NCBI GenBank assembly: GCA_002633005.1
Contig: NMRA01000221.1
Location: 598,033-635,668 of the forward strand
Direction: 5' to 3'
DNA: 37,636 nucleotides
DNA from: Phoronis australis
Lineage: Eukaryota > Animalia > Phoronida
Part shown: positions 5,392 through 36,921 of the stretch, piece by piece
How positions within the stretch are numbered: position 1 is the stretch's first letter
Layout of the letters: each line of letters starts with the position of its first letter
Made by a program: the position numbers and the translations under genes
The notes under the pieces: generated by a model
Told to the model about the DNA's origin: nothing
Databases searched by the model: none
Seen by the model: only the letters and a program-made list of their open reading frames with translations

Positions 5392-8300
5392 GACAAAATA
5401 TCTTTAAACAGTGGTCCAGGTACCTGGATTAAATTATACCCATATAATATTCTGACGGACTGGCAAAATTGGTCCGTTTCATGCAACTATTTTGGTTTTA
5501 ACTTTAACGGAAATAATAAAGCTGTCACGTTGCTCTTTTTGAACAATGCGGTCGACGTCGTACCAACATTCAAGATTTAAAAGGGCCCAAGATGTTATGG
5601 AGATCTATGAAGGTATTTACTTACGAAAGCCATAATGGCGGCCGCAACATAAAATCCAATAATAATCGCGGCGGTGTATGGCGTCTTGTAACGTATGTCC
5701 AGCGAACCTAGGGCTACCCAGACCAACAGAAAGGTGGCTATGAACTCGACGAATACTGCTTGTCCATCAGTTACTCCGATTCCAATGTGTTTCTCAAGTA
5801 TCACTATCTGGTCGGAATAGCGTTCAGTCAAAATGCCCCTAGGACAGACACGGAGACTTTACGATGAGTGACTCTCAGGAGTTCGAAAACAGAATAGTGT
5901 TCAGTCAAAATGCCTCTAGGACAGACACAGAGACTTTACAATGGGTGACTCTCAGGAGTTCGAAAACAGAATAGTGTTCAGTCAAAATGCCCCTGGGGCA
6001 GATACGGAGACTTTACGATGAGCGACTCTCAGGAGTTTGAAAACAGAATCCAGTAAAACGATAAAAATACATTTTATAACTATTTTTCCGTTATTTTTTA
6101 AATTTACCAAGTGTCGACTGAAAAAAGATACTTAACACTTTGAAAGCAATGGGACATGTAGTAATAACGCGATTTTGCAATTTATCGGAAAACCAAGAAT
6201 AGACAACTTACTCCCACAAGAAGCAAGCGGTTATCCCTCCAAGGATTTCTACTACCACGTAGACTGCACCTAGAATACAAATTTCGCAACTTTTCCAAAC
6301 ACCTGGAGAACGCTTTACCTTAAACTTTTACAGTGGGTGATGCGTTTTAAAATTATTGTAATGACAAGAACAATTTTACGTCATTTGGTTGACAAGGGGA
6401 AATCATTCCATTCAATAACAAATAATCTCCGCATATGAGTATTGCGATGCTGAATCAATATATTCACGAATTGTCAAATGTGACGTTTTGTTTTTGAGCA
6501 AACTGAATGCTTTCAACTTGTGTAAAACTCTGCAACGGGAATACATCAATTTTGTTGTCCATCTTGGTTTTACGTAGTGTGTGAAATTTTAACTAAAATT
6601 AAACTCGCAGTGATGGTTTGGGTGGTTGTAATCGCATAATTAAGGACACAGTTAATAAACAAACTGCTTCAAACTATCAGACATACCCTTTAGTACCGAC
6701 GTTTCTCCGAGTATAGCAAAAACGGTGACGTACCCTTTAGTATCGATATTTCTCCGAGTATAGCAAAAACTGTAGCAAAGACGGGGTTCATGAACCCAGC
6801 TCCGAGATGGCCAAACGTTTCGAACAGAACACAGACGAAGAAGCCACCGGCTAGAGCATGTCGCAACACTGAAATGATCAAGACAGTCAAAGTCGTCCTT
6901 GAGGTCAATCATGGTCTTCATATGTGAAGGAAAATTTGACAAAATTTTAGAGTTTTGTTTACTTGTGGCACTGCGCAGTAAAAGCTTATAAACTTTTGCA
7001 GGTGAAATCAAAAGGCGCGAGATTTTTAGGCAAGCAAGGACAAACACAACTTGTAAATGGTATGGAAATGTTGATACTAGTTTAACACAAATCAGTGTAC
7101 CAACAGATGAGAGATAATACGGCTCCGGACACTCATTTGGGCGATCCAGGTTCAAATTCTGTCCAATATGACAATCAGTACAGCATTTCATGCAAAAGTG
7201 TCTCCTACTAAGTCTTGGAAGTAGACTTAGAATGTTTATGGAGGATGGGAGCTTTGGACCGAGCTCTATGAGACCCGAACTCAGGCACGATTTGGATTCA
7301 GAATTGAACTTTAAAGTGGCATAGAACGCGAAAAACAGATTAAACTACACCATTTATTAACGATTTTGAATCTCTGTTTATGCCAAAGCATTTTTCTTTC
7401 AGTTTCGTATTTCAAAAAACGTTATCTGTTCGTCACATCGTCGATTCTCCTACAAGGCAAAGCACGTCTCCTTATTTGGTAAGGCAAGACATAGACGAAG
7501 CACACTCCGCTTAAATGGAAAATATTACCTTTGACCTTTGACGTAAACAAAACAATGACGATTTTACATTCTTTGAGAACATGCGCATTATTAGGGGCGG
7601 AGAATTTGGAAACTGTATTGGGATGAAATAGTTTTTATTTCGTCTGTGTTTCGATTTTTTCTGGAAATGCTTGCAGTATCCAAAGTGAACAAATCTCACG
7701 TTAGCATTTCCAAGAACTAGACTCGCCATGATCTCTTTTTGAAGTTTCGCTTTCCAGGCCTCTTTAACCAATCACTCTGCTGATAATTCGAGTTCAGTGT
7801 TGTAACTTTATTCGAAGTCTTACGTATAATTGGTTAATTTTTGAGTCTAGTTTTCGAGTACAGAGGTTGGATACCTGGCCTGGAATAGGAAAAACGATTA
7901 GATTTTTAAAATAAAATGCTAAAACAAAAATGATGACGCGAGTATTGCTGGTGTCAGCCATATTGCTTGCACGTCTCTGGTCGTTACCTGGTGATCCGTC
8001 TTGTTTGTTCCCCATATGAACAGCGGAGTTGATGCATGTCGAAACAAGAAAAAACGTAGCCAAGAACTCTGCAAAAGCTTCCTTCCAAAATGCGAGCGTC
8101 TTCACTTCTTTCTTTACGCTTTCAACGAACTCACCCGGCCTAAGATGGAATAATTGAATCAAAAAGTAAGTTGGAGAGACACGTGACTTACAGATGTATT
8201 TGCATGATCCTAAGTATGCTAATGTATAGCGAGAACTAAACAACATTGATATTTCAACATAATCTATGCTAAACAAAGTATTCATTTGGGCAATCAGGTG

Positions 8301-21836: not shown

Positions 21837-22683
21837 NNNNNNNNNNNNNNNNNNNNNNNNNNNNNNNNNNNNNNNNNNNNNNNNNNNNNNNNNNNNNNNN
21901 NNNNNNNNNNNNNNNNNNNNNNNNNNNNNNNNNNNNNNNNNNNNNNNNNNNNNNNNNNNNNNNNNNNNNNNNNNNNNNNNNNNNNNNNNNNNNNNNNNNN
22001 NNNNNNNNNNNNNNNNNNNNNNNNNNNNNNNNNNNNNNNNNNNNNNNNNNNNNNNNNNNNNNNNNNNNNNNNNNNNNNNNNNNNNNNNNNNNNNNNNNNN
22101 NNNNNNNNNNNNNNNNNNNNNNNNNNNNNNNNNNNNNNNNNNNNNNNNNNNNNNNNNNNNNNNNNNNNNNNNNNNNNNNNNNNNNNNNNNNNNNNNNNNN
22201 NNNNNNNNNNNNNNNNNNNNNNNNNNNNNNNNNNNNNNNNNNNNNNNNNNNNNNNNNNNNNNNNNNNNNNNNNNNNNNNNNNNNNNNNNNNNNNNNNNNN
22301 NNNNNNNNNNNNNNNNNNNNNNNNNNNNNNNNNNNNNNNNNNNNNNNNNNNNNNNNNNNNNNNNNNNNNNNNNNNNNNNNNNNNNNNNNNNNNNNNNNNN
22401 NNNNNNNNNNNNNNNNNNNNNNNNNNNNNNNNNNNNNNNNNNNNNNNNNNNNNNNNNNNNNNNNNNNNNNNNNNNNNNNNNNNNNNNNNNNNNNNNNNNN
22501 NNNNNNNNNNNNNNNNNNNNNNNNNNNNNNNNNNNNNNNNNNNNNNNNNNNNNNNNNNNNNNNNNNNNNNNNNNNNNNNNNNNNNNNNNNNNNNNNNNNN
22601 NNNNNNNNNNNNNNNNNNNNNNNNNNNNNNNNNNNNNNNNNNNNNNNNNNNNNNNNNNNNNNNNNNNNNNNNNNNNNNNNNNN
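21837..22683. other. Assembly gap (N run)
   Basis: 847 Ns. Confidence 1.
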
Positions 22684-23364
22684 TTCAGCCTCATCACAAG
22701 CAGCTTCTGCCTGTTTTCTTGCCGCCTCTACTTGTTTTTCCAACTCAGCAATAGCTTTCTCTTCATTAACTTTGACTTGACGAGTGATCTCTGCCAGGAA
22801 ATCACTGTATACACGTTTTATCTCATTCTTACAAGCATTTTGTTGCTGGGCATAACTTTGTGCAACTTGCTGTCGTTTATCGCGCAACATTTCCCAGTGC
22901 TGCGTAACATCTCGCCAAGGTTTCAACAAATCACCCATCACCTCAATGGCGTTTTTTGCAGCAACGTCTAAAGCTTTCAGTTTGTGTTGATTATGACTTG
23001 AAGTTACACAATGTAAACATATGGCCACATCGCACTGTTCACAGTGCAGTTCCAAAACTCGGCCTCCATGAGCTGAACAATGCATTTTATTCATGCTGTC
23101 ATTATTCAAAACAATGTCACAGATACCGGCATGAAAAAAGTTATGTTGGAAGCCAGTGGCACCTTCTCTTGGAACAGGAAATTGTGTTTTGCACAGCGGA
23201 CATGGAAATTCACCACTTTGCCCCTGTTCTGTCATGTGACTGTTCAAGCAGTCTTCGCAGAATGAGTGAAGACATGGCAAAACCCTCTGATCACTGGATC
23301 GCTCAAAACACACGGGGCACTCCACCAGTCGACGCAGCTGGGCAACTGGATCGTTCGACGCCAT
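22684..23364 (-). CDS. TRIM/RBCC E3 ubiquitin ligase (TRIM2/3/45/56-like), first coding exon, truncated by the gap
   Basis: Acceptor ctgcag|GAC ATG GCG (exon starts 23367). RING C3HC4 CPVC..LPCLHSFCEDC..CPLC, B-box2 CSAH..CEQCDVAICLHC..HNQH, then coiled coil; frame open into the Ns. Confidence 0.92.
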
Positions 23365-24062
23365 GTCCTGCAGACAGAAAATAATTATAATCACTCGAGA
23401 CATATTTCAGCATCATACCCGTGTTTTTCAATGAACTAACCTTTGATAACCCATAGACATTAAACTGGGGCTTATCATTATCAAAGGTCATTCACTTCGT
23501 TGTACATGGAAGTAAAACAGTTCTAGACAAGTTAATGCAAATTCAAAGGCTGCAGTTTTTTATCAGAGCAAAATGTTGACTATTGTTTGCATTAGTTCTT
23601 ATTAACATGTAACAACAACCAACATAAGGATATATATAGGACCTTATTGACAATTAGCCAAATATCTGTACACTGTAAATCTATAGAGCGAAAGTATATA
23701 TTTCTGAAAGGCAAATTTAAATAGAACTCAATAGTTGACTTGATACCACTAATCTGCCATTAATAAACACAAGTGATTATGCTTTTATCGTAAAATTTAG
23801 AAAAAGAAAAGTACAAAACGAGATCAATTCCATGACCTATTTAATGACCTATTTACGTATAAATGCTATAAAATAAAATCTCAACATTCTTGTCATAGTT
23901 TTGTCTTAATTATCGTTTCCTTTTCATATTATGCAACCTTCATTTTTTCATAAAAAAATAATTGCAGGCGGTCTGATACACGTTGTACCAGACATGTGCA
24001 GGCCTCGCATGTGGGCCCATTGCAGTGATCGCCTGGAAACATTTTTGTGCTTTATTAATATA

Positions 24063-24175
24063 TGGTTAAAACCGAGCTGAGGAGCTAGAAACCTGGCTCA
24101 AGGGTTTAGCAGTGTGACATGGTGGGATTTGAGTAAAGAAAGCGGGCACTTATCAACCAGGCCACACTGCCTCCT
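24063..24175 (-). mobile_element. Degenerate tRNA-derived SINE head (CORE/V-like)
   Basis: Minus strand GGAGGCAGTGTGGCCTGGTTG (A-box-like), TCAAATCCC (partial B box), CCCTTGAGCCAGG (resembles the CORE/V CCTTGRGCAAG motif). Confidence 0.5.
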
Positions 24176-24870
24176 CATTTTTTCATAAACATCAATCCTG
24201 CTTTTTGGTAATCCCTAATGCAAAAGTGGAACATTTTAAACCAACATCTAACAATATTTTGTAGTACAGTGCATAAAGCGTAATATTTTTAAGTTGAATG
24301 TAACCTCGTTCAGCCACTCTGAGGTAGTGTATGATGTTCCAGGGGATATGACATCACATCTTCTGGCGCGAGCAGTTGGGCAACTGAGAACGAAGGGTTG
24401 TTCAAAAAAGTTTGATTGTGCGAGTATTTGTTTGAGTTGGAAGGAAATACAGACATCTCCTAAGTTACTAATACCAACATAATCAATATGAGACATAATT
24501 TGCCAAAAAGCTTCCGGCGTATGGAGGGCCTTTGGGATGCCTACGTCTCCACTGTGGCCAGCTGAGAAGGTGGTACCAAGGAGTGTAACTCAGCTGGTAC
24601 TGTCTAAGGCTAGCCTAGACACAAACTTACAGCAAGCCCCACAAGACAACTAGCTGTATGAAGACAAACAGCTTTACATCAAGTTTAGTTAGCTTGTAGC
24701 AAGGCTTAGTAAGTAAGAAAATAAATGAATTGTTTATTACATATTGTTACGGAAAAATAGGACAAGAAAACATTAACATTAACACATTCCACATTAAACT
24801 ACAATACCTTGAACTATGTACAAAGACAAAACATATGAAATTTGTACAATGAAAACAAACCTTTATTTCA

Positions 24871-25089
24871 TTAATCAATTTGAAAAGACACTGTTATACA
24901 CCAAGTGCAACTAAGAAAGGGACATTCTATTTCCAAAAAAACTTGACAGCATTCTAGTGATTCTACAACTTTATACCAGGCAGTACAACACCGAGGGACA
25001 ACGTAACATTTCATGTCTACGCCATCATGTAGGCCTACGCGTTGTTCTACAAAGTTCGTCCGCTGATTCCACAGTCTCTGCCATGACAT
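24871..25089 (-). CDS. Hypothetical 72-aa Cys-rich small ORF
   Basis: ATG-initiated ORF with 8 Cys in the C-terminal 45 aa; AATAAA 3 nt after the stop (24867-24862); no recognised family. Confidence 0.25.
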   Translation of the reverse strand: MSWQRLWNQRTNFVEQRVGLHDGVDMKCYVVPRCCTAWYKVVESLECCQVFLEIECPFLSCTWCITVSFQID

Positions 25090-25757
25090 ATGATTGGGGC
25101 TTAAAAAGGTGTCGCGGATTCTTTACTTCAAAAAAGTATATTCTTAATCTTTACAAACTTTCATTTTAGATGCATGATAGCGTAAAACTTACTGAAACAA
25201 AACGACTGTAGTTTCCCGCTCAACGCTGAACAGACTTCGGTCGACACGTCCGACTGCTGTGAAGTAACTTCGTGATCTGCGCCAAGATACTGTGTAACTA
25301 CAATATCTTTGTCTGCGCTTACAGGGTCACGCGCGTTTATTTATGGCAACATAGACTATAGATTATAGACAACAGATTCGCAACTCCGGCATATTCTTAC
25401 GAGCTGAGTTGACCTCTAATGACCTATCTGCTGCAGTTTCCGGTCAGTTTTAATTTGACGAGAAATACCTGCATCTACTTTACTGTCCAAAACAGCGAAA
25501 AAAACATTAATTTATATTATTTTCGGTATTGAAACGCTTTTAAAAGTCTTTTAATAGTAGAAGTGTTGGTATTGTGAGTACTTTTGGCAATGCTACTGGT
25601 AATTAATTTCAAAATTCAAACTTCGGTTCCGACCCTTTATGTCGTCTGCTTGCCCAATAGCAGCATAGTTATCGGACAGTTTTTGATTTACGGTTCACAT
25701 AGCCGCCTACTGAGAAAACTACGAAAGCGTGTTGATAAATCAACATTCTCAAGTGAG

Positions 25758-25768
25758 CAGTTCTTCTG
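25758..25768 (-). promoter_or_regulatory. Histone downstream element (HDE)-like purine-rich motif
   Basis: CAGAAGAACTG begins 13 nt after the distal stem-loop, the position expected for U7 snRNA pairing; resembles AAAGAGCTG / CAAGAAAGA. Confidence 0.6.
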
Positions 25769-25781
25769 GGAAGTGTTGAGT

Positions 25782-25797
25782 GGCCCTTAAAAGGGCC
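25782..25797 (-). terminator. Histone mRNA 3' stem-loop (distal copy)
   Basis: CCAAC-GGCCCT-TTTA-AGGGCC-ACTCA: 6-bp stem, 4-nt loop, canonical flanks. Confidence 0.9.
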
Positions 25798-25822
25798 GTT
25801 GGTTGTAGGTATAGCGTGAAAT

Positions 25823-25838
25823 GGTTCTTAAAAGAACC
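25823..25838 (-). terminator. Histone mRNA 3' stem-loop (proximal copy)
   Basis: TCAAC-GGTTCT-TTTA-AGAACC-ATTTC, 10 nt after the TGA of the PHD ORF. Confidence 0.85.
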
Positions 25839-25848
25839 GTTGAATAAT

Positions 25849-26166
25849 TCAACATAAATCACACAGTATACCATGCTCACTCAAGTACTGAAGGTCCTCT
25901 TCATTCAAGTTTTCATCTGGAAAGGTTGGATGAAAACAGAGGAGATGACAATATCGATGACAGTTGTAACACCTTAGATAGATATTACCGTTCACCAACG
26001 TTGTCACGAACCCTGCATCGTTCAGTTCTTGTTCCTGTATCCACAAATAATCCTGAACTGTAGGAAAAAAATGACAAACAACACAACGAATCAAATTTCG
26101 AAAATCATCGCCTTCGTACGATTCCGTGTTGCTGTCACCAGACTGATGTTCTTCTCCAACGTCCAT
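25849..26166 (-). CDS. Small intronless acidic PHD-type (C4HC3) zinc-finger protein, 105 aa, with a histone-type 3' end
   Basis: ACGATGG strong Kozak context; C28-x2-C31-x34-C66-x2-C69-x4-H74-x2-C77-x24-C102-x2-C105-stop; directly followed by two histone stem-loops on the same strand. Confidence 0.8.
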   Translation of the reverse strand: MDVGEEHQSGDSNTESYEGDDFRNLIRCVVCHFFPTVQDYLWIQEQELNDAGFVTTLVNGNIYLRCYNCHRYCHLLCFHPTFPDENLNEEDLQYLSEHGILCDLC

Positions 26167-26325
26167 CGTAAAAAATCGACGTTGCAAGTGATGGAAACTT
26201 GTCTACGCTCTCGTCCTTTGTTTCTAACCTTTAACCCATTTTTTAATAAAGGGGTGTACTGTTTTTGGCTCATGTTGATAGTGCATAATCTATGATTTTA
26301 CAATGTATTAATAGTGTTAAATGCA

Positions 26326-26491
26326 TATATATGAACTGGTCTCATTGAGGTGCACAGCAAATAAATTAACTATAACAAATTAAAGTTTTGAAAATATAAA
26401 GAGCAGTAACAGACTCCCTAAAAATTAGGCTTGTTTTCGAAAGGTTTGCGCCATTGGTGATCCGATTGGTTCAATCGCTTGCGGCGGGAAA
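26326..26491 (-). promoter_or_regulatory. Candidate promoter of the PHD gene: TATA-like, two CCAAT boxes, E2F site
   Basis: TATATA 26326-26331; CCAAT (minus) at 26453-26457 and 26465-26469; TTTCCCGC (minus) at 26484-26491. Confidence 0.45.
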
Positions 26492-26663
26492 ATTGATAGA
26501 CCCAGTTATTGTGCGCGTGTACACTGTATCAATGCTTTGTATCTTATTCTTATTTGTCTAATCTGTTGATACAGTAAATTTCCTTATTTATGCCCATCCT
26601 GATTTAACCCCGACTTGAGCTCCTTGGGTTTTACCATATTGGGGCTGTCCAGGGACTCACGTG

Positions 26664-26807
26664 CATGCGCGCACCCAGTCTTCAAAATGGGGGGCTCGAA
26701 TTCCTGACGTTATGGAACTGTTGTTAACAAGAGAGCGGGCAGACCTTTTTGCCCACTTCGCCAAATGGGGGGGGCTCGAACCCCCCCCCCTCTGAGTGGC
26801 GCGCATG
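26664..26807. mobile_element. MITE, 144 bp, 5-bp TSD (ACGTG)
   Basis: acgtg|catgcgcgcacccag ... ctgagtggcgcgcatg|acgtg. Confidence 0.85.
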
Positions 26808-27086
26808 ACGTGGTGCTTACTCGAATGAGTTTCATTTTAGCGGCTATTTCCAATTGTGTAGGTGAAGTAAATTAACAAAGTGGATGATTATCATCACCGG
26901 TATTTCATCATTAGTATTTTTGTCGGCCTCTCAAGTTTTCCGTGGCTAGGGATTGTCACATCTGTAAGGTAGACGTGTTTCAGTGAACCTCCATGTTTGT
27001 GGCGTTATTTATACCTGACCAAACTTTGAAAAAGAAGCCCGCGTTTAAACCAGGAGCTGCATTGGGTGCAATTTGTGTAGACGTTT

Positions 27087-27243
27087 CATGCGCGCACCCA
27101 GCCTCTAATACGGGGGCTCGAATCTCTGGCAAAGTGGACCTTTTGCTAACAAAAAGCGTGAGAACTAAAATAAAAAACGGGGTGCTGCCGTATTGTGGAC
27201 TTTCGTCTCTTTCTCTTGGACTTTTCCCCTGGGTGCGCGCATG
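27087..27243. mobile_element. MITE, 157 bp, same family, 5-bp TSD (CGTTT)
   Basis: cgttt|catgcgcgcacccag ... ctgggtgcgcgcatg|cgttt; perfect 15-bp TIR; first ~80 bp similar to the 26664 copy. Confidence 0.9.
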
Positions 27244-28017
27244 CGTTTGTCTACGTTGCTAGTTTTTATAAAGGTGGGCCTGTCTGTAGCCAACTACGGT
27301 AAATTCATAAAAGGTCACGTGCAGTGCAACTCAAGTTCATTACAAATTAAAAATCCGAACTTTCAAACCGTTTGATCTGAGTTGACATCTCAAATCAAAA
27401 TTATGAAAATGCCACATAAAAGTATGAAATTGAAAATTAGCACACGTCAGCTTCACGTCCCTACCACCCCCTTTATCTTGCTTGCTACCTCTTAGGGTTC
27501 ATTTCCCTTGCTTCCGAGGTTTTTCGTTATTCTGGTATTTTCATAGACTGCAGCGTACTTGGCTAAGATGGTTCAAGTTTTGTGCGGCATACAGTCGACA
27601 TAAATAATTGAGTATGTAACCTGCTGTTGAATTGCGGGATAGATTTTGACAGGTCCAGGTATTTATTTCTGAAGTATTAATGTAATCTTTATTTATGTTA
27701 AAGGTTTTACTAGCGTCCTATTTATTTGTACACGAATGTGAATTTGTTGAAATCGCTGATCCAAATCCTGGCCAAATCTGCGCATTATGCTGAGACCAAC
27801 CGTCTGATCAGGGCCACCTAAGAGTAATTTGGTTAATTCGCTCACTAGACTATGGCTGAAGGTCCTCGTAAGGACAAGAGTTCACCAGTCACTACCATTG
27901 GAAGAAATTTAGCGGACATTTTTCGTCAAAAAGTTTACCAGATAGTTTTCATCAAAACGGAGAAAAGAAAAATGGATTTGTGAAGACAGGATTAAGTAGT
28001 AGGCCTACCAGAGCCTC

Positions 28018-28214
28018 TTAAAAAACACCCATCTTCGAAGTGTCGTGAACAAATGTATGAGTTTTTTTTTGGAAGAAAAACTTCCATTCACGTCGACGCA
28101 AGAACATAACTTTTTCTCCCAAAGCGGATTTTGTGGTCTTCGTACACTATGGAAGCTAACGCCTCTGCATTTCGCCTGCGTAGCCGAACAACCGGCCACA
28201 CAGCAACCGACCAT
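28018..28214 (-). pseudogene. Frameshifted THAP (C2CH) zinc-finger coding remnant, probably from a DNA transposon
   Basis: MVGCCVAGCS..GVSFH....W in one frame; FLPKKNSYICSRHFEDGCF in a second frame. Confidence 0.75.
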
Positions 28215-28870
28215 GATTAGCAGACGACGTACTTGCCGGAAATTACACCAGATAATTGAGCCAGGTGTCGCCAGTGAATAATGACGTAAAGGCTTGTGCG
28301 TAAGACCACAGATTTCGTCCATTGAAAGTAAACGGAGTTGGCGGTCCATGTACTATGATGGCAATGACTCTTTTTGTCCTGGCGATTTTCCAAATGGGTC
28401 ATCAAAGAAAGTACGCTGGAGTAAGAACTCATTGGTCGCAACCGCAACGTACGCGAGATTCAGTTGTACCAACAATAACCACAACAGAAATCCGAGTCAA
28501 TTTGTTTGCTACAGAGGCTTCTAACAGTAGTCAAATTCAGAAACTGGTTAGCCCACTGAACATCCCTTCAGAAATCAAGCTCACCCGGGTTATTGCAACG
28601 CCGTCAGGTGTTGCCCTCTGACGGTCGCTACGGTATATGTACGTCGTTAGGTGACGATCATACTGTTTCGTCAGTTCACGGGTTAAAGGTAGCCCAAGAA
28701 AGGAAAGCAATTATTAAAAAACTGTAATACCCTCTTGGTATTGTTTTCGATGGCAAAAATTACCGTAGTATAATGTCGTGTTTTTCTTCAAAAACCCGCT
28801 ATGGGAAGTAACCTGACTGGATGAAGGTACTGTAAGAGACATTGAAGTGATCACGTACAAAATGAACCCC

Positions 28871-28941
28871 CTCGCTGGTTCCTTGCGTGCTTAGCCCAGC
28901 CAGCTACCGCCCCACCTAGCGGCACGCAGGGAACCAGCGAG
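28871..28941. mobile_element. 71-bp hairpin MITE with 20-bp TIRs and a 10-bp TSD
   Basis: aatgaacccc|ctcgctggttccttgcgtgc ... gcacgcagggaaccagcgag|aatgaacccc (1 mismatch in the TIR). Confidence 0.9.
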
Positions 28942-30711
28942 AATGAACCCCGTGCACTCCTGAGAGGCGTACTGGTACGAATGAAAAACGGCGTTCTTCT
29001 TAGTTTTGATGGTCACCAGCAGTTTCACAGGCTTGCGCCCCTCCCTCTGCATGTAGTCACTAATATTGACTAAAATTCAAGTCCCCTGACTGGCCGTCTG
29101 CCTGTCTGCCTGCTCAGTCCTTGGTGCCCTTGTACGCCAGGCCGCCAATCCGTGCACAACGCCTTACCCGAGAAAATCTCTGGGAAATGATAGATGGGAC
29201 AACAATACCAACAAGAACACTGAGCTAGAATGTCCAAATCCATGACAGAACAGAAAATTAACCACAAATTATATGCAACAGCCGACCAGTCAGCTCAGTG
29301 GTTTTATGATCAACTGAAATTATTCTTATGTTCTCAAATTTACAAAACGCAACTTTCAGTACTTATATTTCAAAACTGCCAATTTCAATATGAGCTAAAA
29401 ACAGATACATGTAAGGTCCAATGTCGGCAAGTTACAGACTAACGTGAGAAATCTTGAGCGTTCCTAAAAATGGATTACCGTATTCTCGGTCATCTTCACA
29501 TTCTTCATCACTTTCATGTGCCCTGGCCGCTTAGCAAAGGTTTTCAGTGCCCGTGGGCAATAATACCATAATGCAAACCTCAGTTTGTCCATCATTATAA
29601 AAGATTTGTGATTCAGTTTCTATTTTAAACCTACACTGAAATCTCCGTTACAAACGAGAACTAAATAGTGTCTGCATTTAACAGGGAGATTTCTTGTGTG
29701 CCAACTTGCTCTCTGACACAGCGCCGCCCATGCTGAAAAGTTGTACATGTCACAGCACTGTGAAAGAGTGTAGTGTACAACATAGTCTCTCCAGGCAGTC
29801 GGTAAAAGCAGTTCAAAGCTGGTCGTAAACAATACTGACGAAAATCTTTTTGATTCGCTCATGCTCTAGCCGTTTCCATCGACAAATCGCATAAAATTTT
29901 AGACTTGCCTAAAGTGCCGGATTAGTCATGCCAAGTTGATTAGGCATCCCCATCACTTTCCTACAGAGTGTAGTGTGGTGCCCGGAGGATAGGCAATCCA
30001 TGACTGTAAAATGCTGCAGCTTACTACGGCCTCGCAAGAAACAGGAGCCTCGTCACAGAGATTGACTTGGTTTTAAAAACAAGGGCCCCGGCCTCGGATT
30101 AGAGGTGAGGCAGTATTAGTCCGGACATTGCAACAGTTTCGAATACATAGGCTTATGTGTCTTGGGAGCAAAGAAAATATGTATATAAGTCCTTTAATGA
30201 CTTCAAGAAATACCAAGAAAATTTCTAGTAATGCTGTAGTTTTCAGATTTTAAATTGTTATTTGCTGCGAGACCCATTAGTTTCCATTACCGGTCTGTTA
30301 GTGGTCCGCTGCTTAGTAACTCGCCTCGTTCGTCTAGTTGAACTCGCAAGAAGTGTTCGTCAACACTGAACGTAAAGTCTGCGATTAAGAAAAACATAGG
30401 TGCAAGTTCTGGAAAATCACCCAGGCCAGTTTCGAATATTTTTATCAAAAGCTTAATACAATTAGAAGCACACGGATTAATAAAATCATTTGCCGGCTGG
30501 GAAGGTCGGTAGGAAGTTTCCCCCTCCCGTGTAAGACTTTTTTGGTGGTTTTTAGTAGCTGATTACGTTTTTCTGGCGAATTTTTTTCAATATTTATTTT
30601 TGATTATGTACCGAGGGGTGTTTGAACCCCCTGTAGGTCCGCCTCTGAACGACGTACATGGTAGGCTCACATCGTCTCTGCTATGTGTCTGTTATACACA
30701 GTTGTACTTAC

Positions 30712-36089: not shown

Positions 36090-36310
36090 TCATAAGTCCG
36101 ACGCCACCGCGTGCAAATTACGCAGCGCTGCACTCTTTGTTGCTCTCATTGGCCCGTGTGTGCTGTTCTTGCTGAACCTGGCCAGTATTGCATGAAGTTG
36201 AGGCTCAACAACACCCAACAGAGGGCGCTTCTGGGGAAGACTTTGCCAGCAGGCTTGCATAAGTTCCCAGCACTCCTCGTCAAAGTGAACCAACTTTTCG
36301 GGACGAACCC
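36090..36310 (-). CDS. DSTYK: Dual serine/threonine and tyrosine protein kinase, last coding exon
   Basis: ttttag|GG GTT CGT CCC: GVRPEKLVHFDEECWELMQACWQSLPQKRPLLGVVEPQL...*, closely matching the DSTYK kinase C-lobe ([26 protein letters not shown]). Confidence 0.93.
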
Positions 36311-36750
36311 CTAAAATAAAGAGGATGCAGCACATAACTGTGACACGTCACACAAGAAAATACATAATTCTTAAACGCTCCATCTTTAAAACAAGAGCTA
36401 CACTGTGCAGATAGAAGCGATGATCACTATAATTTTATACATCCACTCTTAATGGGACAATGCTGGTGAACTTAATAAATAACAACCTCTAGGCTCTAGG
36501 GGAATGACAGAATTTGACTTGTCTGAACAGTTTAATGTACAAAAACTGCACGTAGCCTAACTCTGTTCAAAAGTTGAGACAGGATCCAACTAATATTTAT
36601 TTACTGTACATCTGCGCGGTCCTTTCTCACCACAAAATCATTTACAACAGACATAGATGTGACGATAAGTATCTCAAGTAGCTAGCTAGCTCAAGCCATT
36701 TGATGGATATGACAATCCTCCATTTACCCACTGTCCCCACGTCCACCCAC

Positions 36751-36921
36751 CTCTCTTGACTGCAGTCCACAGCTGGTCCTTACTGGCGCACTGCTCAAAG
36801 GAGTATGGCAGTTTTACACTGCCTGCGCAAACATACCAAAACAGGATGCCAAAGGCATAGACGTCTACGCTGTTGTCATAGCTACCACTGAAGAGCTCTG
36901 GTGCCATGTGAATAGGTGTAC
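36751..36921 (-). CDS. DSTYK: Dual serine/threonine and tyrosine protein kinase, penultimate exon
   Basis: tttcag|GT ACA CCT ATT CAC ATG ... AGA G|gtgggt, 171 nt: [39 protein letters not shown], characteristic of DSTYK; the rest of the gene lies beyond the window. Confidence 0.95.

Follow-up and report, generated by a model that had tools for sequence, protein, structure and literature searches.

A candidate histone-type 3′ end on a predicted PHD-finger gene within a P-like DNA transposon of Phoronis australis

The ORF, its 3′ signal and its surroundings

The window, meaning the whole stretch of 37,636 nucleotides of Phoronis australis DNA analyzed here, contains an ORF of 105 aa on the minus strand (26166..25849). 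Its coding sequence is uninterrupted, and the term intronless is used here for the coding sequence only, not for the 5′ end of the gene. The predicted product has an acidic S-x-T-E-S N-terminus and a C4HC3 finger with a predicted PHD fold. Two histone-type stem-loops follow on the same strand, 25 nt apart. The proximal loop (25823..25838, minus strand) lies 10 nt past the stop codon and the distal loop (25782..25797, minus strand) 51 nt past it. An ACTCA pentamer stands directly past the distal stem (25777..25781, minus strand), with cleavage predicted after 25777, and a purine-rich candidate histone downstream element, CAGAAGAACTG (25758..25768, minus strand), begins 13 nt past ACTCA.

These elements had been listed in a first-pass annotation, which read them as an SLBP/U7 processing signal on a non-histone gene, and all of them are present. 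A search with the 16-nt loop pattern found 2 exact matches in the whole window and none in 300 simulated windows. The Rfam Histone3 model (RF00032), which the annotation had proposed as a check, was applied to the window. The distal loop passed the gathering score of 34 (36 bits, E 4.9e-7, at 25802-25756), but the proximal loop fell under it (22.8 bits, E 0.044, at 25843-25811). Folding of the 102-nt 3′ region gave a structure that contains both hairpins (z −3.0).

In the portions of a preprint that concern histone mRNAs, the 3′ element is placed 25–60 nt past the stop codon and cleavage five nucleotides past the loop (bioRxiv 10.64898/2026.10.14.759114). The 26-nt distal element begins 46 nt past the stop codon, inside this range, and the proximal loop, at 10 nt, is outside it. 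GAAGA at 25766 could pair with the conserved U7 snRNA box, given as UCUUU in PMC5054213, with one G-U pair; the box is a general one and not that of this species' U7. A sequence check downstream of the proximal loop found no U7-type element behind it. Judged by sequence and spacing, the distal loop and its downstream element fit the histone signal. Features shared with the metazoan replication-dependent histone mRNA end (RF00032, SLBP, U7) are the 16-nt loop with its diagnostic second G-C pair and loop U, a pentamer ending in CA, the purine-rich element, the stop-codon distance and the uninterrupted coding sequence. Unlike that end, the signal described here belongs to a non-histone gene, has tandem loops, lies inside a transposon and is known from sequence alone.

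A profile scan of the ORF and of 23400-30000, translated in all six frames without stopping at stop codons, gave no match to a histone family. As the six-frame scan also failed to pick up the weak signals of PHD and THAP, only well-preserved remnants are excluded by it, and it is to this extent, and for 23400-30000, that the earlier statement that no histone coding sequence was recognized in the window was upheld.

On the 5′ side, a motif search identified a candidate cell-cycle promoter at 26453..26491 (minus strand), about 300 nt upstream of the ORF. It consists of an E2F-like site, TTTCCCGC (26491), and two CCAAT boxes (26469 and 26457), named by their likeness to the consensus motifs. The rough joint chance of the E2F/CCAAT combination, 0.001, was calculated after the motifs had been seen. 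Five ATGs separate the ORF start from the CCAAT boxes, a TATA-like stretch lies at 26248, and the start-codon region differs in other copies. Four relatives of the protein (P0004, P0013, P0018 and P0032) are N-extended, and their residues before the conserved start resemble a translated splice acceptor. These protein records give a hint that relatives may possess a 5′ intron.

Several other genes and repeats were noted in the window. A TRIM-type gene with RING, B-box and coiled coil occupies 21837-25272 (minus strand). RNA reads place its non-coding first exon at about 25193-25272 and a splice from 25192 to 23366; in alternative forms, 23367 is spliced either to 25236-25237 or to a site beyond the window. 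The TRIM coding region enters an 847-nt N gap (21837-22683), and a very high-copy repeat lies within the TRIM intron at 23960-24201. A 20-nt inverted repeat (95%) forms a hairpin at 28871-28950 and is likely a small mobile element; the RNA reads across it include strand-switch joints. Exons of an aquaporin (MIP) gene lie at 7794-8285 (minus strand) and those of a protein kinase gene at 36090-36907 (minus strand).

A family of small predicted PHD proteins

The first protein search returned 2 relatives of the ORF product. An unindexed search returned 8 matches, one of which (P0008, 958 aa) is a repeat protein and was dropped as a chance match. In the profile search, 31/609 candidates were assigned to an unnamed family (31 clusters) of stand-alone PHD-fold proteins, mostly of 94–114 aa, with an acidic S-D-T-E-S motif at the start. 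All eight C4HC3 zinc ligands are present in the window protein, with the spacing C-x2-C-x34-C-x2-C-x4-H-x2-C-x24-C-x2-C, and each is kept in 28–30/30 aligned rows. Aromatic residues at positions 63 and 72 are also conserved. No longer fused forms were found at E≤1 among 10 candidates, which is weak evidence that the proteins stand alone. The genome of the zebra mussel, Dreissena polymorpha, contains two copies, DPMN_056048 and DPMN_041554, on contigs of 77 and 87.5 Mb, which agree at 88/99 of their leading residues. In one cluster, the five members are 96–109/110 identical and lie on five contigs from one or more assemblies.

The PHD assignment was examined by profile and by structure. The Pfam PHD model matched the window protein weakly (E 0.16), and PHD_NSD was matched by 7/10 aligned members (best E 3.2e-7). 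A structure model built from the 30-sequence alignment reached a pLDDT of 82, compared with 51 from the single sequence. The best Foldseek match of the model was MLL3 PHD6 (probability 0.96, E 0.051), and in a wide structural comparison the top rows were nearly all PHD entries (best Z 4.6). A sequence search of solved structures gave none at E≤0.001 (best E 0.033), and protein atlas searches yielded PHD clusters as leads only, under 0.9. A PHD fold is likely for the modeled protein, which may bind histone tails or chromatin. The earlier call of a non-histone ORF was confirmed: the ORF has no histone family match and encodes a real, selected product with a predicted PHD fold.

The best structural matches are MLL1 PHD3, MLL3/MLL4 PHD6 and Pygopus, which share the C4HC3 ligands and the conserved aromatics 63 and 72. 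Compared with these PHD fingers, the window protein has about 20% identity, a longer first loop with an extra helix, a stand-alone form and the acidic S-D-T-E-S N-terminus. A PHD finger on the second gene of a transposon is also described for invertebrate RAG-like transposons, in which RAG2L has a C-terminal PHD finger; that of sea urchin binds methylated H3K4 (both described in PMC7204232). Unlike RAG2L as described there, the protein studied here has no kelch propeller and another zinc-ligand spacing, and it is accompanied by a THAP remnant instead of a RAG1-like gene. A RAG2-like origin was rejected on the size of the members (about 94–114 aa), the lack of a kelch domain and the different PHD ligand spacing, again relative to the account in PMC7204232.

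The first-pass annotation had named a host, a virus or a transposon as possible sources of the gene. Searches of viral contigs with the protein found no viral relatives and one with the tandem loops found no match, no viral fold matched the model at E≤0.001, and a viral origin was rejected on these grounds. The transposon part of the proposal stood, on the element ends, the target duplication and the multiple copies described below. A metagenome search with the single protein as query gave 3 loci, one bacterial (L001) and two (L002 and L003) judged spurious as short weak matches and lacking a loop. A search of genome contigs gave just 2 short, weak matches in bacterial records. In a tree of 42 rows, from which the N-extended records and P0007 were excluded, the window protein shared a long branch with P0001 and P0002; no conclusion on origin or on the order of events was drawn from this tree.

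The enclosing transposon and its copies

The ORF and its 3′ signal, together the cassette, lie inside a 3008-bp DNA transposon copy at 25350..28357 (minus strand), identified from its ends, target duplication and reads. The 7-bp direct repeat ATGGCAA is found immediately outside the element on the left (25343..25349, plus strand) and on the right (28358..28364, plus strand). An exact 7-mer at one fixed pair of ends is expected by chance at about 6e-5. The left end, which is the 3′ end of the element, carries a terminal inverted repeat, CATAGACTATAG (25350..25361, plus strand), whose 12 nt are the reverse complement of the opposite end in other copies. The repeat at the 5′ end (28346..28357, minus strand) is shorter than in other copies, with 5 nt matching the left end. 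The element begins with CATAG at 25350 and finishes with CTATG at 28357, giving CAT..ATG ends. The ends of P-type elements generally begin with CA.

Breakpoints into unlike flanks were seen in three RNA runs at 25358 (115–147 reads per run) and at 28356 (182–214 reads). One further end pair equals 25350-28357 in combined score, but it lacks read support. A search for an inner element enclosing the PHD cassette found 11 end pairs, with read support for 25350-28357 only. Reads also revealed shorter element copies, with joints from 25384-25386 or 25589 to 28192-28198. These internally deleted copies keep only 25350-25589 and 28192-28357 and outnumber the interior in RNA reads. A second CATAGAC-type end occurs inside the element at 27542, with a partial inverted match outside it at 28409-28422; no duplication was found for this pair.

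Near the 5′ end is a putative frameshifted THAP-domain remnant (27995..28214, minus strand), likely the start of a lost transposase gene. It consists of two Pfam pieces in different frames, positions 1–36 (E 0.083) and 49–61 (E 0.0076), which are collinear and both under the curated cut-off. THAP domains are also present in other transposon groups. A profile search of the three minus frames of 26200-28350 found no P-type DDE catalytic domain. The interior also holds one or more nested high-copy short repeats, likely a later insertion, at 26663..27244 (strand not assigned), with inverted arms at 26663-26678 and 27229-27244. Reads show a depth peak, loose ends and joints from 26772 to 27226. The nested repeat has G-rich internal repeats and is covered by hundreds of RNA reads with loose ends; a target duplication around 26663-27244 was looked for and none was found.

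In PMC4168063 Galileo is given a 7-bp and P an 8-bp target duplication, and the THAP domain is described as typical of P-superfamily elements. The window element resembles the P superfamily (P element, Galileo, 1360; THAP9) in its 7-bp duplication, as in Galileo, and in what is probably the remnant of an N-terminal THAP domain with the C2CH signature (features as described in PMC4168063). It also shares with them short terminal inverted repeats, internally deleted copies and insertion beside a transcription start. It differs in that the window copy has no catalytic domain and in its extra stand-alone PHD gene with promoter-like and histone-type 3′ signals. Because the 7-bp duplication and the THAP remnant are both P-superfamily features, the multicopy 3.0-kb element that holds the cassette was filed as a non-autonomous DNA transposon most like the P superfamily. 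Given its damaged end, the lack of a transposase and the nested insertion, the window copy is probably immobile. Nothing in the literature search described a stand-alone PHD gene on a P-like element; repeat catalogues such as Repbase may list this element family.

Copies of the cassette were compared over 25690-26200. One run of the same organism contributed 74 contigs, of which 22 were less than 90% alike; another organism, the second, contributed 8. Copies of the element are numerous and fall into two or more divergence classes. Copy differences were taken from the best-supported 40 of 74 rows, with each change scored singly, so the result reflects differences between subfamilies. Among these best 40 rows, 38 fell in the ORF, with 25/38 at third codon positions; 20 were synonymous, 16 replacing and 2 stop-making. 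Depending on the assumed transition bias, these ORF changes correspond to an omega of about 0.2–0.35, consistent with purifying selection among copies. Only 1 of the same best 40 rows fell in 25690-25871, at 25778, outside both loops. Summed contig depth over the 3′ signal was 272–625 (from 25708 on), as high as over the ORF.

One of the second organism's contigs spans 25730-25856, shows 2 differences and leaves the window sequence at 25730; a divergent contig from the first organism leaves it there too. Since both depart at this position, likeness lasts through the downstream element; it stops about 28 nt beyond. Two divergent contigs require 26 and 18 gaps, and one divergent contig aligned only from 25806, between the loops. 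Because the comparison uses the best 40 of 74 rows and the divergent contigs are gapped or partial, conservation of the 3′ signal among copies is regarded as indicative. Broken copies are many, including an in-frame stop at codon 42 (7 contigs) and a frameshift at 26072 (4 contigs). Under the second organism's label (run X6), 25730-26200 is represented by near-identical pieces (2 differences in 110–127 nt) and by pieces about 89% identical, which may reflect close kinship, mislabeling or horizontal transfer. Runs X7 and X8 reach only part of the ORF and are uninformative on the loops.

RNA reads and competing explanations

Three RNA runs (X9, X10 and X11) were searched, with about 18–19% of each run read. 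Strand orientation was taken from the TRIM exons, where first mates on the plus strand correspond to minus-strand RNA. The libraries are listed as unspecified; unique intron bins near zero suggest that they were poly(A)-selected. Sense/antisense depth over the ORF bin was 39/19.4 in X9, 26.7/9.2 in X10 and 3.2/6.5 in X11, and downstream of the loops it was 26.7/15.9, 23.4/13.3 and 4.1/5.8, respectively. The antisense share of the reads ranges from one quarter to two thirds. Reads on both strands continue through the loops at similar depth downstream, and no pile-up of ends was seen at 25777 in the three apparently poly(A)-selected runs. The RNA end predicted earlier at about 25777 was therefore not seen in these runs, in which most reads are unlike the window copy and appear to come from other copies. 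For example, a 2-nt deletion at 25703 is present in 40/45 reads. The read pattern is what copies within other transcripts would give. The RNA data do not support a loop-ended RNA, a kind of RNA that poly(A)-selected libraries would deplete.

We put at roughly 55% the probability that the cassette is an accessory gene of the transposon, timed to S phase through the host histone 3′-end pathway. Besides a transposase, active elements of the family would have encoded the small predicted PHD protein in a second gene, one having a promoter of the cell-cycle type and a 3′ end of the histone type. G1/S transcription would be driven from the E2F-like and CCAAT sites. SLBP would bind the distal loop, U7 would pair with the GAAGA element, and the RNA would be cut after 25777, a route of processing that would limit the PHD mRNA to S phase. 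The PHD protein would bind a histone tail and help the transposase to find replicating chromatin or promoter chromatin, or to jump at a time suited to it. Jumps timed to replication would be how a cut-and-paste element gains copies. The S-phase motive is taken from the precedent of Drosophila P elements, which are described in PMC5443660 as amplifying by S-phase jumps with a preference for replication origins, as inferred there from insertion sites.

Counted in favor of an S-phase-timed accessory gene are the element with its ends and many copies, the selection on the coding sequence, the few differences in the 3′ signal, its histone-like spacing and the protein family. The position of the element is counted in favor as well: the insertion lies upstream of the host TRIM gene transcript, about 80 bp from its 5′ end (RNA read ends 25268-25272). 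Several observations were counted against it. There is no RNA end at 25777, sense reads pass the loops and antisense reads are substantial. Broken copies exist, five ATGs lie upstream, start codons differ and the single-protein PHD match is weak, and no catalytic domain firmly links the element to the P superfamily. A broader reading, that a widespread invertebrate family of P-like transposons encodes a stand-alone PHD reader with an mRNA built like a histone message, is possible and is advanced tentatively.

The passage of sense reads through the loops would also be expected if the PHD gene is real and the loops are a piece of histone 3′ end that was captured during gap repair and duplicated. 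The loops would then be passengers, a terminator or a decay signal, and the mRNA would be polyadenylated downstream. P-type elements produce rearranged copies by gap repair, ATTAAA is found at 25555 and 25454 within the 3′ end of the element, and the proximal loop is without a downstream element. We nevertheless consider such a capture unlikely. The distal signal appears to have all its parts and stands at the proper distance from the ORF stop, the 3′ signal differs less among copies (best 40 of 74 rows) than the selected coding sequence, and no well-preserved histone coding remnant was found in 23400-30000. The traversing reads, moreover, come from apparently poly(A)-selected libraries, in which loop-ended RNA would be depleted.

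It is rather improbable that P-like ends picked up the PHD-plus-loop cassette from outside, as a gene of the host or a mobile unit in its own right, working through SLBP/U7 in either case and playing no part in transposition. Some copies depart at 25730, which implies more than one downstream flank, the short copies of the element lack the cassette, and the protein family is conserved across distant animals. Against this, the THAP frame begins in the shared end and extends into the interior, read depth is unbroken from the cassette to the element end, and no inner end pair around the cassette has read support. The relatives are, in addition, near-identical, dispersed and often broken copies, as is typical of transposon genes.

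It is very improbable that the loops have nothing to do with the ORF and stem either from a histone gene since deleted or from chance. The first of these origins had been named in the first-pass annotation as a finding that would refute it, and the case for either draws on the loops being defined by sequence rather than by function. Both are largely refuted by two exact loops versus 0/300 simulated windows, by the 10 nt from stop to first loop, which leave no space for a lost gene, by the lack of a well-preserved histone remnant in six frames of 23400-30000 and by a cassette that moves as one unit in many copies and in the second organism.

The earlier SLBP/U7 reading is, overall, partly supported and is moved into a transposon setting. 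Histone mRNAs are described as the sole animal mRNAs ended by SLBP and U7 (PMC4604434 and PMC5054213). The former calls them the only known non-polyadenylated cellular mRNAs and, in its account of HeLa cells, reports no real non-histone SLBP target (PMC4604434). Both 3′-end routes are used by some histone mRNAs, according to PMC9756948. Our literature search, with Repbase-type catalogues and most subscription journals outside its scope, did not turn up any gene of a DNA transposon described as ending in a histone-type 3′ signal. As a selected transposon gene with what appears, from its sequence, to be a complete histone-type signal, the gene is a candidate non-histone protein-coding client of SLBP/U7.

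The transposon PHD gene offers a direct test of the histone exclusivity of the SLBP/U7 ending and points to a specific means by which a cut-and-paste element could link itself to S phase. If the broader, family-wide reading is correct, sequencing based on poly(A) would fail to show the PHD RNA of the element. Most records of the PHD family have no annotation, and poly(A) transcriptomes would miss the family. On the family-wide reading, the element would plug into the machinery of the host histone locus, making a chromatin-targeting cofactor solely during DNA replication.
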